From: an uncultured delta proteobacterium
GTDB lineage: Bacteria > Desulfobacterota > Binatia > UBA9968
DNA: 22,677 nt
Assembly: GCA_963847445.1 (NCBI GenBank)
Contig: CAWJZV010000037.1
Location: 1-22,677 of the forward strand
Direction of reading: 5' to 3'
The notes beneath the pieces are model-generated. The model was not told the DNA's origin, made no database searches, and worked only from the letters and a program-made list of their open reading frames with translations. The position numbers were made by a program, and so were the translations under genes. Positions 72-21,849 of this stretch are shown here, one piece after another. Every line of letters starts with the position of its first letter. Position 1 is the stretch's first letter.

Positions 72-335
72 TGTCATTTCGACTGGAAGGAGAAATTATC
101 CGATTCCGAATTCCCCGCCGTCATTCCCGCGCACGCGGGAATCCAGGTTTATTCCCGTGAATCGAAGATGGATTCCCGTTGTCACGGGAATGACGGAATG
201 AGGCTGCGGCGCGATGCGGGATTTGGTGCGAAGAGAGAAGTGCAGGTTGCGAAGGATACGATGGATTCACCAAGAAGAGCACGTAGGATGGAATAATTTT
301 CCGAACTTCGTGCTCTTAGTGTCCTTCGTGGCGAA
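72..335. repeat. Cluster of short palindromic intergenic repeats (GTCATTTCGAC half unit, GTCATTCCC inverted doublet, TTCACCA-GAAG/CTTCGTGG unit)
   Basis: 118-196 has perfect inverted ends CCGTCATTCCCG...CGGGAATGACGG and two ATTCCC-N8-GGGAAT hairpins. 119-150 is identical over 32 bp to 11167-11198. 266-335 is a TTCACCAAGAAG...CTTCGTGGCGAA unit related to 20897-20937. Confidence 0.9.
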
Positions 336-348
336 AGGTGTTTTCTGA

Positions 349-1895: not shown

Positions 1896-2389
1896 CACCA
1901 CGAAGGACCTAGCGCGGCGAAGCCGCAACCAAAAGGGAAAGACCTTTTCACCACGAAGTGCTTCATGGGCTTACGCTCGTCTACTGATCATGAAAATACC
2001 GGAAGCCCTCTCCCGAGGGTTCATTCCTTAGACTCGTCATGCCGGCGCAGGCCGGCATCCAGGGGCGCGAGGGGGGATGGATACCGGCCTGCGCCGGTAT
2101 GACGGAACAGAGAGTCGTTATCGATATGCATATCATCCCCTCACATGAATTTTCGAAGGAGGACACGAAGATCACGAAGGTTGGAGTTCAAATTATCCGA
2201 ATTATCCGAACCCTTCGTACTACTATCCGTGATAGTTTGCGCGGCTTGCGCAAATTTCTCGATGCGCCAAAGCCAAGAGGGCGGGTTTCAAACCCGCCCC
2301 TACGACTCCCGATATTTTTGGCGCTCTTTGCGTTCTTTGCGGGAATTATTCTGTTCGGTTGCGGCGCAGCGCGCGTGATCTTCGTGGTG
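1896..2389. repeat. Nested composite palindromic element (copy A)
   Basis: Terminal inverted repeats CACCACGAAG/CTTCGTGGTG. Second layer GCGCGGCGAAGCCGCAACC (1912-1930) / GGTTGCGGCGCAGCGCGC (2357-2374). Inner GTCAT...ATGAC doublet 2035-2104. GTAG-type REP hairpin 2279-2303. The last ~150 bp resemble 11321-11468 and 19753-19903. Confidence 0.88.
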
Positions 2390-4898: not shown

Positions 4899-6264
4899 AT
4901 GCCGAAAAAGCTTTTTATCCAGACCTACGGCTGCCAGATGAACCAATACGATTCGGAAAAAATCGCCCAGGTCCTGGCGCGCCAAGACTATGTCCGAACC
5001 GATCGTATCGATGGCGCGGATGTGATCCTGCTCAACACTTGCAGCGTGCGCGACAAGGCCGAACAAAAAGTTTACAGCGCGCTCGGCAGCTGGAAGGAAT
5101 TCAAAAACTACCGCGACGGCGTCATCATCGGCGTCGGCGGTTGCGTAGCCCAACAGGAAGGCGAAAATCTCTTAAAGCGCATCCCCCATTTAGATTTGGT
5201 TTTCGGCACCCACAATATTCATAAACTGCCGGAGATGATCGAGCAGGTTGAAATCAGCCGGGCACGCCCGGTGGAGACCGCTTTTTACCGGGATCCGGCT
5301 TACATGGACGATAGCGAACTGCGGACGCAAGTCGACGGCGTCAAGGCTTTTGTGACGATCATGCAAGGCTGTAATAAAGTGTGCAGCTTCTGTATCGTGC
5401 CCCATGTGCGCGGCCGCGAGGTGAGCCGGCCCAGCGCAAAAATTCTCGCCGAAATAGAATCTCTGGCGCGCCACGGCGTCAAGGAAGTCATGCTGCTCGG
5501 CCAAAATGTCAATTCCTACGGCAAACTCACACCTGGCGAGCTGAGCTTTGCCGAGTCTGCTCGCCCAGGTCGACCAGATCGATGGCTTGCGGCGCATTCG
5601 CTTTACCACTTCCCACCCGCAAGATTTGTCGCCCGAGCTGATCGAGGATTTCGCCACGTTGGCAAAATTTATGCGAGCACCTGCATTTGCCGGTGCAGTC
5701 GGGTTCGGACACGGTCCTGGCGCGCATGCGCCGCGGTTATACCAAGGCGGAGTATTCTGGCCCGGCTCAATCGTCTGCGCGATCGTTGTCCGAAAGTGGC
5801 GCTGAGCACCGACATCATTGTCGGCTTTCCCGGCGAAACCGATGGCGAATTCGCCGAGACGCTAGAATTACTCCGCGCGGTGGAGTACGATGATATTTAC
5901 TCGTTCACCTATTCGCCGCGGCCGCAAACCGTCTCCGCGAAAATTTATCCCGACGATGTTCATGACGACGTGAAAAAAGAGCGTTTAAGAATCGGTGCAA
6001 AAATTGCAGCGCGAAATATCTTTGGCGAAAAACCGCCAACGCATCGGCGACCGTGAAGAGGTTCTGGTCGAGGGAGCGGCGAAACTAAAAGCCGAACAAA
6101 TCATGGGCCGCACCCGCGCCAACCGTATCGTCAACCTCACCGGTTCTACCAGTTTGATCGGTGAGTTCGTGCAAGTTCGGATTATCGGCGCTACCGCCAA
6201 CTGATTGCTCGGCGAGTTGATGTGCGCTAATGCTGCGATTAGAGTCCCAGCAAAAAGAGGTTAG
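4899..6264 (+). CDS. miaB: tRNA-2-methylthio-N6-dimethylallyladenosine synthase MiaB (four frameshifts and one in-frame TGA in this sequence)
   Basis: TYGCQMN, LNTCSVR, GCVAQ, radical-SAM [52 protein letters not shown] and a C-terminal TRAM domain. These motifs are spread over frames by +1 shifts near 5556, 5668, 5756 and 5994. TGA 6202-6204 interrupts ATAN-x-LLGEL, and that frame ends at TAG 6262-6264. Confidence 0.93.
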
Positions 6265-6267
6265 GCA

Positions 6268-6797
6268 ATGAGCAAGAAATCAGAATGTATAGAGATGTCG
6301 GTCGGCGGTTTAACCCTCGACCCGGTGACCAAGACACCCATCGTGATCCTCAAAGACAGCGAAAACAAGCTCAATCTGCCAATTTGGATGGCCTGCTGGA
6401 GGCGCACCGCCATGGCGACCGAGATCGAGGGCATAACCATGGCCCGGCCGATGACCCACGATTTGCTCAAGACCTTATTGGGCGAGGTCGGCTGCTCGGT
6501 GCAGTCCATCGAGATCACCGAGCTCAAAGAAAACACTTATTACGCGGCGATTAATCTTACCCTGGCGCGGCGGGCGCCCGCTCATGCTCGACTCGCGCCC
6601 CAGCGATGCCATCGCATTGGCGCTACGCGCCAAATGTCCAATCTATGTCGCCAAGGCGGTGCTGGAAGCATCGAGCGTCTTACAGCAGGACGAAAACCAA
6701 AGACGTGCCGGTTGAGAACGTCTCCAACGTGTCCCAGGAAAAATGGGGCGAGATTCTCGAAAAAATGACCCCGGACGATTTCAAGTACAAGCAATAG
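6268..6797 (+). CDS. Bifunctional nuclease family (DUF151) protein, frameshifted in this sequence
   Basis: PIVILKD...LPIW, RPMTHDL, TYYA, then LDSRPSDAIALALR...PIYV in another frame, and a C-terminal LEKMTPDDFKYKQ ending at 6797. Confidence 0.87.
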
Positions 6798-6870
6798 TTC
6801 GATTTTGCCGGCGTGCTTGATTAACAGTTCAAGTGTTATTGAGAACGCCGCGTAATCCCAATTCAATCCA

Positions 6871-7565
6871 ATGGCCACAACCCAAACTAGAAGAATCAGC
6901 CGTAAAGAACTGCGCCAGCCTGATCGCTTTCAAGTCGCCACTGAGAAGGCGCTGGAATATATCCAATCCCACAAGAATTTAGTCTTCGCTGCGATCGGCG
7001 TGTTAGTGCTGTTCGGTCTGGCAATCTGGGCTGGCAGCTATTTAAGGAAAGGCAAAATGACGCGGCGGCGCTGGAGTTCACCGATGCCACGGCGCTTTAT
7101 CAAGCCGAGAAGTACCGCGAGGCGCTGACAGCCTTCGAAAAGGTTCAATCCTATCGCTGGTCGCGTTACGCCGGCTTGGCCCATCTTTATCAAGCCAATA
7201 CCCATATTGCGTTGGGCGAACTCGACAAGGCGCTGAGTTCGGGTCAACGCGCGGTTACAGCGAGCCGGCCCAACACGCTGTATCGCCAACTAGCTCTGAT
7301 GACCTTGGCCAACGCCGCGGAGCAAAAGAACGACTGTCGCCAAGCTATCGATTCTTACGACGAAGCGCGGAAAATTGTCGCAGCTCAGCAAGACGAAGCT
7401 TTACTCGGTAAAGCACGTTGCCTGGAAAAGACCGGCGATGCAGCCGGCGCCTTGGCAGCCTACAAGGAATATGTAAAAGACCAGCCGGGTTCGATTGCGA
7501 GTGCCAAAGTCGTCGAGCTTGAGGGCAAAGTTTCGACAGCTCCGGTGACACCGGCGGCGAAATAA
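6871..7565 (+). CDS. Membrane-anchored TPR protein (YfgM-like), one frameshift near 7030
   Basis: ISRKELRQPDRF basic N-terminus, one hydrophobic segment, then helical TPR-like repeats that continue in the 7176..7565 frame. Confidence 0.78.
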
Positions 7566-7714: not shown

Positions 7715-8709
7715 TCATCGCTTTGCTAACTGATCGATAAAGCCACTGTCGTCGAGTTTTTTCAGTATCGAATGGTTGATCACCATGTCGGGTTTGATCT
7801 TGGCCACTAACGGATCGGATTCGGCGATGAATTCGATCATCGATACAATGCCGGCGCTGTCGACATAAGGTTTTGGCGGCAGCACTTTGAGCGCCGATTG
7901 ATAATGCTCCTCAGCCTTCTCGACTCGATCCGAGTCTTAAATACTTGGCGATGACTTGCTTGACCCGCTCCTTGTTCCGCGGATCGAGACTGAAACTGTT
8001 ACCGGCGACGATGCCCTTTAGCGCCCGCTCGACAAACTCTGGGTCATTCTTGATTGTCCGCTCACGAATGCACATGGTTTGCTGTGGATAGGGAATCGGC
8101 AGCTCGGTGAAATCGGCCAGGATCGAATTACCACGTTCCTTCAGCACGCGGCCCGAGACCGGGATTGACGATGATCGCGTCGCTGCCACCCGACTGCAAC
8201 GAACCGACCCGCGCGGCTTGATTGCCCAATTGAAGAATCGTGATGCGGTCGCGCCGGGCATCGAGGCCCCAATGCTTCAAACCAAGTAACACGGCGTGAT
8301 AGGACGCCGTGCCGGCTTGCGCCGCGCCGATCCGCCTGCCTTTGAGATCTTCGGGTTTCTTGATCGCCGCTGACGTTACCAAGATGTAATTCATCTTATT
8401 GACCATGCCGGCAAACATGGTCAGATCGGCGCCGCGTGCCCGCGCGCTAATCACCGGCTGGCCCGACATGCCCATGATCGGTATGTCTCCCGAAATCAAC
8501 GCTTGGGCACCGCGTGTGCCCCCTTCGATCAAAATCAAATCCGGGTCGCTGCCGTAACGTTTAAACAGCCCCTCTTCTTTAGCAACCCAAAGCGGCGTTT
8601 GATTGGAACTGAAGGAGGAATAACCAAGCAGAAATTTATTCTGCGCCAACCCTAGGGCCTGATAAAGGAGTACGCAGGTGCCAAAAATGAGACCGGATAT
8701 TCGCTTCAT
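7715..8709 (-). CDS. ABC transporter substrate-binding protein, NitT/TauT (NMT1-like) family, two frameshifts (~8147, ~7932)
   Basis: Signal peptide, PLWVAKEEGLFK, ALISGDI, DLKGRRIG. Continues as KERGNSILADF and then as KPYVDSAGI...LDDSGFIDQLAKR, with the stop at 7715-7717. Confidence 0.85.
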
Positions 8710-11096: not shown

Positions 11097-11469
11097 TTCA
11101 GCGCGAAGTGTCCATGAGCTCGCGCTCGCCTACGAGCATGAAAATGGCTCTGCTCCCTCCTTGATTCGTCATTCCCGCGCACGCGGGAATCCAGGTTTGG
11201 TCAGCACCGAATTAGCCTGGATACCCGCTTTCGCGGGTATGACGGAACACCGGAGGCTCTTCGTTGTACATCTCATCCTCTCACAAGTATTTTCGAAGGA
11301 TCTGACGCAGGACACGAAGCGCGACTGCGCAAATGTTCCGATCGCCGAATACCAGAGGGCGGGTTTCAAAGCCGCCCCTACGAATCCCGATTTTTTTGCG
11401 CCCTTTGCGTTCTTTGCGGCCATTCTGCGTTTTGGTTGCGGCTTCGCCGCGCTAGGTTCTTCGTGGTGA
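11097..11469. repeat. Nested composite palindromic element (copy B)
   Basis: CGAAGTGTCCATG...CATGAAAAT module (cf. 1954-1997), GTCATTCCC doublet 11167-11245, ATTTTCGAAGGA closer (cf. 2135-2160), REP hairpin GGGCGGGTTTCAAAGCCGCCCCTAC, GGTTGCGGCTTCGCCGCGC, CTTCGTGGTG end. Confidence 0.88.
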
Positions 11470-15367: not shown

Positions 15368-15457
15368 CGTCTTGCCGGCTCAGGCCGGCAGCCACCTTCC
15401 TTGTTAGTCGAAGCCAATTTAACAAAGCCTGGATACCGGCTTTCGCCGGTATGACGG
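15368..15457. repeat. GTCAT-type inverted palindrome doublet
   Basis: CGTCTTGCCGGCTCAGGCCGGCAGCCA...TGGATACCGGCTTTCGCCGGTATGACG; same family as 2035-2104. Confidence 0.85.
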
Positions 15458-15519
15458 AAGAGGCAGTCGAGTATCAGCCGACGAACTCGCGAATACTTGG
15501 CCCGGCTTAGTGTCCAGAT

Positions 15520-19365: not shown

Positions 19366-19903
19366 ACCACGAAGCTCACGAGGGGTTTGGCAAAGGGCGC
19401 AGCGTGCTGCGCCCCTACAACTTTGTGCTACAACTTTGTGCTCTTCGTATTGCTATCCAAAAACTAACACCACCATGTTTGTCATATCGTGCGACTTTAA
19501 TATTCCGGGAGTCGAAGATTTTCGGATTCGGAAATTCCTCTCGCCAAGGCGCAAAGACGCCAAGTTCGAAGAGAAAACAATAGTACTCTTACAAACGGTC
19601 ATCATCACTATTTTATTTTCCGAGCTTTGCGAGCTTAGCGACTTTGCGAGAGATATTCCGAGTTTCGATTGCGGCTGTTCGCCTACAGGCGCACCTCTTT
19701 TCCCCCAGCGAAGTCTGGGGAAAAGCGTGTATTACCATGCCTCGAAGTTTACGCGGCTTGCGCAAATTGCCCGAGCGCCAAATCCAAGAGGGCGCCTTTC
19801 AAACCACGCCCCAACCAATCCCGATTCTTTTTTGCGTCCCTTGCGTTCTTTGCGGCCAATCTTCAATTCGGTTGCGGCAGAGCCGCGCCAGGTCCTTCGT
19901 GGT
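19366..19903. repeat. Nested composite palindromic element (copy C)
   Basis: Inverted ends ACCACGAAG/CTTCGTGGT. REP hairpin GGGCGCAGCGTGCTGCGCCCCTAC. CTCTCGCCAAGGCGCAAAG...CTTTGCGAGAG pair (~19538-19652). Hairpin ~19698-19725. ~150-bp tail shared with copies A and B. Confidence 0.86.
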
Positions 19904-19935: not shown

Positions 19936-21144
19936 CTATTCGTACAGACTCTTGATGAACCCGCTATCTTCGATGGACTTGAGGATAGTCGGATCGCTGA
20001 ACGATGCCGGGTCGGCAGATTTAGCTTTGGGAAACTCCTTGGCGATGGAGTCGAGCACCGTGCGTATGCCGCTCACGGAAGGATACGGCACGCGGTCGAA
20101 ATAGGTGTTGGCATACTGGTCGTAGGTGCGCTCGGCGTATTTCTCCTTGTCCGCCTCCATGCGCATTTTCTTCAGGATGATGCGGATGCTTTCCTTCTTG
20201 TTGCGCTTGAAATAGGCAATCCCTTCGACGTAGGCGCGCATCACTCGAGTCGCCTGATCACGGTTGCCGCGCAGGTAGCCGCGCGTCGACACCAGCATGC
20301 TTTGCAAATAGTGAATGTTCATCTTGGCGAGATCGGCTAAGACGCGGAAGCCATTGTCTTCGGCGATGAAATAGGACGGGTCGGTCAGCACCGCGCCGTC
20401 GACGACTTTCTTTTGCAAGCTCACCAGCATGGTCGGCGACGAACCGATCTGCAAGACGTTCAAATCCTCCTGGCGCAGGTTCCAATGATTGAGCAAGAGG
20501 GTCAGAACCGTATGGGATGCGGTGCCAAAGGCGGTAATGGCGATGCGCTTGCCTTTTAGGGCCTCTGGCGTATCGACATCCGGCCGCACCAGTAGCCGAT
20601 GCACGCCTTTGTTGTTGAGCGCGGCGATCATCGTCACATCGCTGCCTTTTAGCATGGAGCTAATCACCGGCCCGCCGCTGGCGCTGGCGAACTGGATATC
20701 GCCCGCCAATAAGGCGTTAATGCCACGTGCCGCCCCACCGCCGATAAAGATCGCCTCGACGTCGAGACCATGCTTTTTGAAAAAACCGCGTTCCTCGGCC
20801 ACCCATATGGCGCTATTGCTCGGGCTAAAAGCGCCCATGCCGATGCGAATCTTGTCCATCGCTTGGGCGTATTCTGGCGGGCTGATGAAGAACGCATTCA
20901 CCAAGAAGGACACGAAGAGCACGAAGGTCGGAAAATTACTTGACCGAAAACTTCGTGCTCGGGGCCTATGGTGAGCGTAGGTTTGTAGGATGTGGTGACC
21001 AAAGGGAACCGCATCGTTGGTAAGTCGCATTCGTTCGATGCGGTTCGCGGACTCACCACATCCTACGGGTTTCGCCATTTTGATTTTCCGCAGGTGTGCG
21101 TAATCACATGAAACACTTCGTGGTGAAAATGAATTTGTCATCAT
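19936..21144 (-). CDS. ABC transporter substrate-binding protein, NitT/TauT family; 5' end overlaps a repeat element, start codon uncertain
   Basis: Mature part AQA-MDKIRIG, IWVAEERGFFKKHGLDVE, ALLAGDIQF, LKGKRIAIT, PYPSVSGI, IEDSGFI. The frame is open back to ATG 21144, 6 bp after the upstream stop. Confidence 0.88.
   Translation of the reverse strand: MMTNSFSPRSVSCDYAHLRKIKMAKPVGCGESANRIERMRLTNDAVPFGHHILQTYAHHRPRARSFRSSNFPTFVLFVSFLVNAFFISPPEYAQAMDKIRIGMGAFSPSNSAIWVAEERGFFKKHGLDVEAIFIGGGAARGINALLAGDIQFASASGGPVISSMLKGSDVTMIAALNNKGVHRLLVRPDVDTPEALKGKRIAITAFGTASHTVLTLLLNHWNLRQEDLNVLQIGSSPTMLVSLQKKVVDGAVLTDPSYFIAEDNGFRVLADLAKMNIHYLQSMLVSTRGYLRGNRDQATRVMRAYVEGIAYFKRNKKESIRIILKKMRMEADKEKYAERTYDQYANTYFDRVPYPSVSGIRTVLDSIAKEFPKAKSADPASFSDPTILKSIEDSGFIKSLYE
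20897..21127. repeat. Nested composite palindromic element (copy D) inside the 5' end of the CDS
   Basis: Inverted ends TTCACCAAGAAG/CTTCGTGGTGAA. Inner GTAG-REP inverted pair GTAGGATGTGGTGA...TCACCACATCCTAC (20985-21066). 20897-20937 matches intergenic 295-335 at 37/41 nt as the reverse complement. Confidence 0.88.
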
Positions 21145-21150
21145 AATTGA

Positions 21151-21849
21151 TCAACTCGGCCAGTCGGCGAGCAGTTTGCCGTAACCTTGGATCGGCGCGC
21201 GGCGGCCCAATTGTGAAAGTATCTCCCAGAGCATCGCGGGATTGCTGGCGATGGCGGTGATCTTTAGGTCGTTCTCGATCTGTTGCAACACCGGCAATGG
21301 ATCGAGCACGGCGCCTTGAAAGTATATGGCATCGACAGAGCCGACTTCGGCCAACGCCTGAAGGGTGAGATCGTAGACCGCTGCCGGCCCCAAACGGCCG
21401 GCCTCGCCGATATTGGCGAATGACTTAGGCGCGCGCACTGAGAAACCGGCATCAGTCAAATATTCTTCGATCATGCCGTTCAAGCGGGTCTCGAATGGCG
21501 TCAGCAGCAGCAGATGCCTGGCGTCGTACTTTTGCAACGCATGCACCGACGCCGTCAAAGCGGTGGTCACGGGGATTCGCAGCGCCGCCTTGAGTTCCGC
21601 GAACAGTCCGGGATTCATCACCTCGGTGGGCGCGCCGATGAGTATGACCGCATGCCATTTCTTTGCAGCGGCAAGTTCACTGACGCGGCGCACGACTTGC
21701 TGTTTCTTGCCGGTGATTTCGTAAAGCGATTGGCCGAATAGTCCCAAGCCGTGAAAGTCGAACTGGACAAAGTCCGGCACCAGCTTCATGAAACCATCGT
21801 AATGCGGCCAGGTCGCCGGTCCAGGACTAACGAAACCGATATTGAGCAA
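21151..21849 (-). CDS. Asp/Glu racemase superfamily protein (maleate isomerase / arylmalonate decarboxylase-like), lacking cysteines
   Basis: IGFVSP, IPVTTALTA, LLTPF, DAIYF, IE-x2-L-x5-SNPAMLW, GYGKLL. The TTG start is uncertain. Confidence 0.85.
   Translation of the reverse strand: MLNIGFVSPGPATWPHYDGFMKLVPDFVQFDFHGLGLFGQSLYEITGKKQQVVRRVSELAAAKKWHAVILIGAPTEVMNPGLFAELKAALRIPVTTALTASVHALQKYDARHLLLLTPFETRLNGMIEEYLTDAGFSVRAPKSFANIGEAGRLGPAAVYDLTLQALAEVGSVDAIYFQGAVLDPLPVLQQIENDLKITAIASNPAMLWEILSQLGRRAPIQGYGKLLADWPS

Follow-up and report, generated by a model that had tools for sequence, protein, structure and literature searches.

A dispersed palindromic repeat probably took over the front of a signal peptide in one clade of NMT1-family binding proteins

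Within the window, the whole 22,677-nt stretch of DNA from an uncultured Binatia-type bacterium analysed here, a dispersed palindrome of about 80 bp with a nested REP module occupies positions 20897-21126, in frame ahead of an NMT1-family gene. We consider it very probable that this repeat replaced the front of the gene's signal peptide, is translated, and is used as a predicted Sec-type signal. In the history that we propose, a repeat copy would have taken over the front of the binding protein's ordinary signal in the ancestor of one clade, with its left arm supplying the basic n-region, its right arm the hydrophobic core, and 13 non-repeat codons the predicted cleavage site. Translation would begin at the ATG at 21144 or 21141 through coupling to the upstream stop, followed by export and cleavage after the AQA motif. 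The leader has probably been overwritten repeatedly through recombination with free copies or between species, or through arm-to-arm inversion, while selection would keep only in-frame versions built from 9-nt units. The 95-residue leader in the window would be a recent long variant that arose by uptake of a composite copy bearing a REP doublet.

The locus and the architecture of its leader

The open reading frame at 19936-21144 (minus strand) extends for 402 codons. Its mature part (19936-20859, minus strand) is an NMT1/THI5-like (SsuA/TauA-type) ABC substrate-binding domain (PF09084, 77.4 bits against a cut-off of 20.5) that scores below the SsuA and TauA equivalog cut-offs and whose closest solved structures are periplasmic binding proteins. 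The TGA stop of an arylmalonate decarboxylase/racemase-like gene (21151-21849, minus strand; PF17645, 67 bits, below the NCBIfam equivalog cut-off) sits 6 bp before the leader ATG at 21144, and this upstream gene is syntenic in the repeat-clade orthologues as well as in the ordinary-leader orthologues L025, L050, L051, and L079. Solute-binding proteins are very greatly expanded in the genome as a whole, with 487 NMT1-like and 172 TctC-like ORFs. Several window genes (4899-6056, 6268-7565, and an NMT1 paralogue at 8128-8709/7911-8261) appear to be split by single-base indels, probably long-read errors; one of the split genes is, judging by its motif, presumably miaB-like. The first-pass annotation had counted three other intact paralogues with ordinary signals, a number that falls to two since the third (8128-8709) is split in the assembly.

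Read on the minus strand, the leader opens with two ATG codons and a run of AT-rich codons ahead of the palindrome arm (21127-21144), with no Shine-Dalgarno match. The left end of the palindrome (21116-21126), which reads S-P-R and whose anchor lies 267 nt from the mature start, is followed by a spacer module of the composite repeat (21067-21115; 60-70 similar genome copies by blastn coverage) and by a nested GTAG-tagged REP doublet that folds into a long hairpin (20985-21066). The next segment (20926-20984) aligns as a 24-nt variant insert, an inner left-arm unit, and the loop, and encodes the basic/polar n-region HHRPRARSFRSSNFPT; the 24-nt variant also occurs in the free copies G007:C13 and G000:C4. 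The right arm (20897-20925) comprises three 9-nt units that encode FVLFVSFLV, the predicted h-region core, with a mean hydropathy of 3.09. The leader ends outside the repeat with NAFFISPPEYAQA (20860-20898), which carries the A-x-A of the predicted signal peptidase I site and has a fixed length across clade members. The first-pass annotation had described a 231-bp element in an open frame, with an ATG 6 bp past the upstream stop, and a 37/41 identity between 20897-20937 (minus strand) and 295-335; both descriptions are confirmed, with the element counted from 21127. Its statement that the h-region is largely repeat-encoded stands for nine of roughly 14 residues, the remainder (NAFFI) lying outside the repeat.

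The window's leader is 95 residues long. In the typical short leader, the start codon is located 8-12 nt past the upstream stop; four or five codons rich in AT precede the left arm (SPRR..RR..), and after the loop come the right arm (FVxFVxFVV) and 13 non-repeat codons with an A-x-A-like end. The spacing from start to arm is 12-18 nt and 67-92% AT in 18/18 leaders, and 16 of the 18 in-frame leaders lack the nested REP doublet.

These leaders conform to Sec/signal peptidase I signals in all three regions. The n-region has a net charge of +3 to +13 (+8 in the window), the uncharged hydrophobic core (FVLFVSFLVNAFFI in the window) has a best 9-mer hydropathy of 3.09 that lies inside the spread seen for 297 ordinary leaders of paralogues, and the predicted cleavage site has Ala at -1 in every one of 18 leaders with A, V, T, or G at -3. 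Length departs from the usual ~20-30 residues, with 40-54 aa in most orthologues and 95 aa in the window against a median of 28 for ordinary paralogues. The Tat consensus is S/T-R-R-x-F beside the h-region; a Tat reading was rejected with this pattern in just 2/18 leaders and none in the window, as was a lipoprotein reading, with a lipobox pattern in 1/18 leaders (L040) and again none in the window.

A Shine-Dalgarno match is absent at 21144 and present in 146/231 ordinary paralogues, and strong hairpins form in the folded leader mRNA (z of -5.9 for the window and -6.8 for the short form), which could hold expression down. Given these two features and the 95-residue length, internal initiation or weak export is possible. 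A 70-residue n-region is unusual, and the internal ATGs at 21078 and 21030 could be used, yielding leaders of 73 or 57 residues. In an RNA library, a gap-free contig of 240 nt covers 20818-21057; the RNA runs contain only small shares, and the contig may represent DNA carry-over.

Over 20600-21009 and 20603-21013, short-read contigs from two runs are identical to the window and free of gaps, and a contig from a third run matches 20603-20933 with two differences and no gap; 21013-21061 is bridged solely by pieces with 3-7 differences, possibly derived from other copies. Runs from three samples of one study contain the window's version of the leader. An assembly artefact as the source of the frame is ruled out by the short-read contigs together with 17 in-frame orthologue loci. 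A second copy of nearly the whole window, 95-97% identical and with many single-base indels, lies at G000:C1 10,700-32,400 and belongs to a second strain or haplotype in the bin. A single additional base ahead of the mature start puts this duplicate out of frame, and its upstream gene contains several indels. Across the mature-start junction, independent short-read contigs have the sequence of the window rather than that of C1, and the extra base is seen in none of them.

Direction of change and selection on the leader

The tree on which we rely was built from mature DNA. It groups the 22 repeat-leader loci in a single clade (SH-aLRT 97) that falls within 11 ordinary-leader loci, some of which occupy the same syntenic site as repeat-leader loci. 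A quick protein tree, which includes one mis-framed row (L009), recovers a repeat-type group of 32/86 rows with a support of 93. Among 120 listed protein homologues, with 6 clipped or unalignable rows left out and leaders read by eye, a repeat-type leader is found in 15/15 at ≥91% identity and in 0/99 at ≤89%. The signals of sister and outgroup orthologues are ordinary and 22-26 residues long, which makes the repeat the derived state, one that took the place of both the n-region and the h-region of a pre-existing signal. The direction is thus shown by the tree: the repeat displaced an ordinary signal in the ancestor of a single clade.

An alignment of orthologue N-termini had been set beforehand as a check, and it returned short repeat-built leaders (40-54 aa) as the rule, with 72-99 aa in 3/18 in-frame leaders. 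Against these orthologues, the two central proposals of the first-pass annotation, that a repeat was exapted as a Sec h-region and that the n-region was lengthened later, both hold, with the addition that the left arm also provides the basic n-region. For the lengthening, exchange of the leader for a composite free copy with the same left arm (eight free modules) is a better account than the insertion of a lone REP, as nested insertions would have it. Some ordinary signals (L025, L050, and L093 and L097, the last two being orthologues of the C18 gene) weakly resemble the repeat arm at the DNA level, and ancient repeat-built leaders that have since decayed may therefore hide among them. In the ordinary-leader orthologue L069, a different GTAG doublet is inserted in the n-region, leaving a 301-nt gap.

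An in-frame start is present in 18/19 leaders that have the upstream stop in view, the sole exception being C1, and among the in-frame leaders the distance from the arm to the mature start takes seven values between 102 and 279 nt. The chance of staying in frame over the six length changes among these seven classes is about 0.002, a value that, like the Fisher test below, overstates significance because the orthologues are kin. Among free palindromes, the length is a multiple of three in 41/117, and 33/117 are open as well. The hydrophobic character of the arm is likewise maintained. Of the distinct codon changes in the arm, those to polar, charged, or stop codons number 0/27 in 18 leaders versus 14/71 in 84 ungapped free arms (Fisher p=0.007), a count that leaves out four leaders with unit loss (L005, L006, L037, and L041). 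Leaders missing a unit have a greasier c-side. An uncharged 9-mer occurs in 17/20 leaders versus 89/223 free arms, and the commonest free arm, which contains an 8-nt unit and reads LRVLRAFVV (44/223), is absent from all leaders of this gene. The arm also appears to be needed: the best 9-residue hydropathy is 0.34 without it, lower than in all but 4 of the 297 ordinary paralogue leaders, and 3.09 with it, higher than in 202 of them.

Mature dN/dS is 0.026-0.071 at a dS of 0.26-0.98 versus 15 orthologues, and the values for the repeat clade and its ordinary-leader relatives are 0.045 (120 pairs) and 0.079 (10 pairs), respectively. The low value in the repeat clade rules out a pseudogene or relaxed selection. 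The first-pass annotation had set a destroyed signal with relaxed selection against its own proposal, and the strong purifying selection on the gene is at odds with that outcome. Amino acid pN/pS in the arm is 0.65, far above that of the mature domain, which is compatible with signal peptides but also with constraint at the DNA or RNA level. Frame, hydrophobicity, need for the arm, purifying selection, and a mature Met that is not conserved all point in the same direction at the level of sequence.

The leader is in orientation A in 15 of 23 cases, B in 4, and unclear in 4; the window and L004, labelled A by eye in the tree, are unclear in this count. B-type leader peptides also occur in P0003, P0011, and P0121-P0123. 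Because the element is palindromic, either orientation gives the same kind of basic-then-hydrophobic peptide. Monophyly of the B-orientation rows is compatible with the data (p-AU 0.18), so the DNA proves one flip only. Between the window and L045, 173/180 nt of the long leader are identical, against 812/918 in the mature gene, and the window's nearest relatives have leaders of 54 and 40/43 residues. Arm pS (0.37) is lower than that of the adjoining non-repeat codons (0.55). The occurrence of both orientations, along with leader variants that match free-copy variants, suggests that the leader has been overwritten repeatedly.

Other readings of the leader

Three alternatives were weighed. According to the one that survives best, though we regard it as unlikely, the short leaders work and the window's long composite is a recent variant that is poorly exported or merely tolerated. 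The long form postdates the split from L002 (96% DNA identity, 54-aa leader), it stacks two hairpins, and its C1 duplicate is out of frame. However, a near-identical long leader is in frame in the divergent L045, another long one is found in L040, and the window's version is carried by the runs from all three samples mentioned above. Moreover, composite modules with the REP doublet exist as eight free copies that share the left arm, and just two of the eight are open in the leader's frame.

The translated leader could instead be an uncleaved membrane anchor, or be routed to Tat via the twin arginines of the left arm, a reading that we judge improbable. Its n-regions are long and very basic (net +3 to +13), their range of 18-77 residues among orthologues would be tolerable for an anchor, and most short leaders contain SPRR or RR pairs, with S-R-R-x-F in 2/18. 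The window leader, in contrast, has no RR pair, and the S/T-R-R-x-F pattern is missing in 16/18. All 18 leaders keep Ala at -1 and a Pro-rich, helix-breaking c-region, and in the CopC case described below (P0148) the leader stops immediately ahead of the His with which mature CopC begins in every located orthologue.

It is very improbable that the repeat is an untranslated RNA or DNA element, with translation starting at MDKIRIG or at a GTG in the arm to give a cytoplasmic protein: the window does have ATG as its first mature codon, a strong hairpin, and no Shine-Dalgarno match at 21144, many N-terminal REPs are mis-annotated and really extragenic according to the available part of PMC3733652, and a cytoplasmic ABC ATPase (P0153) also has the repeat as its called N-terminus, but the first mature codon is ATG in only 4/22 loci (CTG in 12, TTG in 2, and CTC, CTA, or CAG in 4), the frame and hydrophobicity of the arm are constrained, the A-x-A-type site is kept, and the ordinary signals of the outgroups indicate that the protein is an exported one.

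Origin of the repeat, recurrence, and comparison with known systems

The repeat that we propose to have become a predicted Sec-type signal is an imperfect palindrome of ~72-91 bp, usually intergenic, in which arms of 8- or 9-nt units flank an AT-rich loop. Its arm has 289 matches in the genome versus 3 per 1.5 Mb of Markov-simulated DNA, which excludes chance, and a profile search located 192 palindrome loci. Two free copies lie in the window, one intergenic at 265-336 (plus strand, 39.1 bits) and another at 2159-2219 (minus strand, 26.6 bits). The exact pattern is present in 9/151 genomes of the class and abundant only in this genus (3/4 genomes). The outer palindrome has no Rfam match at E≤1. 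Its consensus bears neither a GTAG nor a CGTC tag, and its arms bracket GxxExxY genes rather than a RAYT. The nested doublet (20985-21066), by comparison, has the properties of a GTAG REP/REPtron: a RAYT gene (NF047646, 190.8 bits) at L184:500-1230 (G000:C39) is bracketed by the same doublets. Intergenic mosaics of CGTC-tagged REP pairs and a sister nonamer family also occur in the window (119-198, 2035-2107, 11167-11247, and 15368-15459; 1896-1934, 11392-11468, and 19828-19903).

The leader's repeat arms are those that bracket GxxExxY (TIGR04256/PF13366) genes, with both arms at 10/31 genus loci and at least one at 15/31, counted over the 31 located loci out of 32. The genes that lie between both arms are L152-L157, L159, L166, L168, and L175; in other GxxExxY subgroups, sister repeats built of different units flank the genes. 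Because the arms are shared, the free hairpins look, from their sequence, like gene-less forms of GxxExxY cassettes. By analogy with RAYT/REP, these may be mobilised by the GxxExxY protein, a family for which the literature searched describes no function. A parallel with Rickettsia palindromic elements, which insert in frame into proteins and for which Ogata 2000 is cited, had been raised in the first-pass annotation; the origin of the repeat appears to be of the gene-less cassette kind instead.

The same repeat is found in the leaders of four other exported-protein genes. In a second NMT1 gene it overlaps the leader, in frame in L090, L091, and L095 and frameshifted in this assembly on C18; there, an arm with an 8-nt unit encodes a basic n-region together with the first part of the h-region, and the FVxFV form is seen in P0133. 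In a TctC-like gene it overlaps the leader at 3/11 orthologue loci as well as in P0130 and P0134, the other eight loci being ordinary. The repeat also overlaps the leader of the CopC protein P0148, with L103 retaining its own hydrophobic stretch, and that of a third NMT1 gene in P0135, P0144, and, weakly, L124. L098 was not counted among these loci. Per genome such leaders are rare, with the repeat in 3 ORFs (the window, the C1 copy, and C18) of 346 NMT1-type N-termini and in 0/127 TctC-like ones. A heptamer palindrome occurs in the leaders of 12/127 TctC-like genes of this genome, and a sister repeat supplies the hydrophobic stretch of one NMT1 leader on C24; the heptamer-unit and sister-repeat leaders map to G000:C30 about 577,700-597,100, C8 95,354, and C24 70,733 (strand offsets). 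A leader profile run against 1.84 billion representatives gave 24 matches, mostly short spurious ORFs made of repeat, and no new exported protein.

As a more tentative proposal, the gene-less GxxExxY hairpins of this genus might constitute a standing, orientation-independent, swappable signal-peptide cassette that takes over export when it lands behind the start codon of an exported protein. Recombination with hundreds of free copies would then rewrite the leader in length, orientation, and nested REPs, tuning expression and export across the expanded repertoire of binding proteins. Gene callers often clip repeat leaders at an internal GTG or ATG (P0006, P0013), so the exported proteins look cytoplasmic; annotators should be warned that they may pass for such.

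Among the open-access articles searched, in their main text, none deals with this repeat or with repeat-built signals in this group. Orthologous bacterial proteins that gain or lose signals are described as differing by wholesale N-terminal insertion or deletion, and the part of the same study seen here reports that ISEScan detected no transposable elements near the N-termini of Enterobacterales signal gains (PMC5952966). The source in our case is a small repeat, which a scan of the ISEScan type would likely miss. It thus names a concrete DNA source for wholesale replacement of a bacterial signal peptide, where that study, in the portion available, could not trace signal gains to mobile elements. 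In-frame MITE fusions have been described, with no mention of signals in the available portion of the report (PMC5896051). Rickettsia palindromic elements and intragenic GTAG/CGTC REPs also sit in frame in protein genes (PMC3733652, available part), and the nested doublet of this leader is one of the GTAG REPs and has a partner RAYT. Those elements, as the same part of the source presents them, are tolerated additions in protein loops or ends, many of them in DNA repair, whereas here the repeat replaced a part that was needed.

The closest precedent is the Yersinia RU-2/YPAL repeat, which makes up a portion of the signal peptide predicted for YPO1552 (PMC2759123, PMC2229807). In the available text of these sources, that case is a single locus, 100% conserved among strains, with a SignalP prediction only and no selection test. 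Here, in contrast, a clade at dS values of up to ~1 keeps both frame and hydrophobicity, the two arms provide the n- and h-regions, both orientations occur, the leader appears to have been swapped among repeat variants, and five genes are involved. The present locus thereby extends a single, prediction-only example to one that is phylogenetically polarised and accompanied by evidence of selection. We regard it, on its sequence, as a well-supported instance of signal-peptide takeover by a repeat, of a kind already known rather than a new category.
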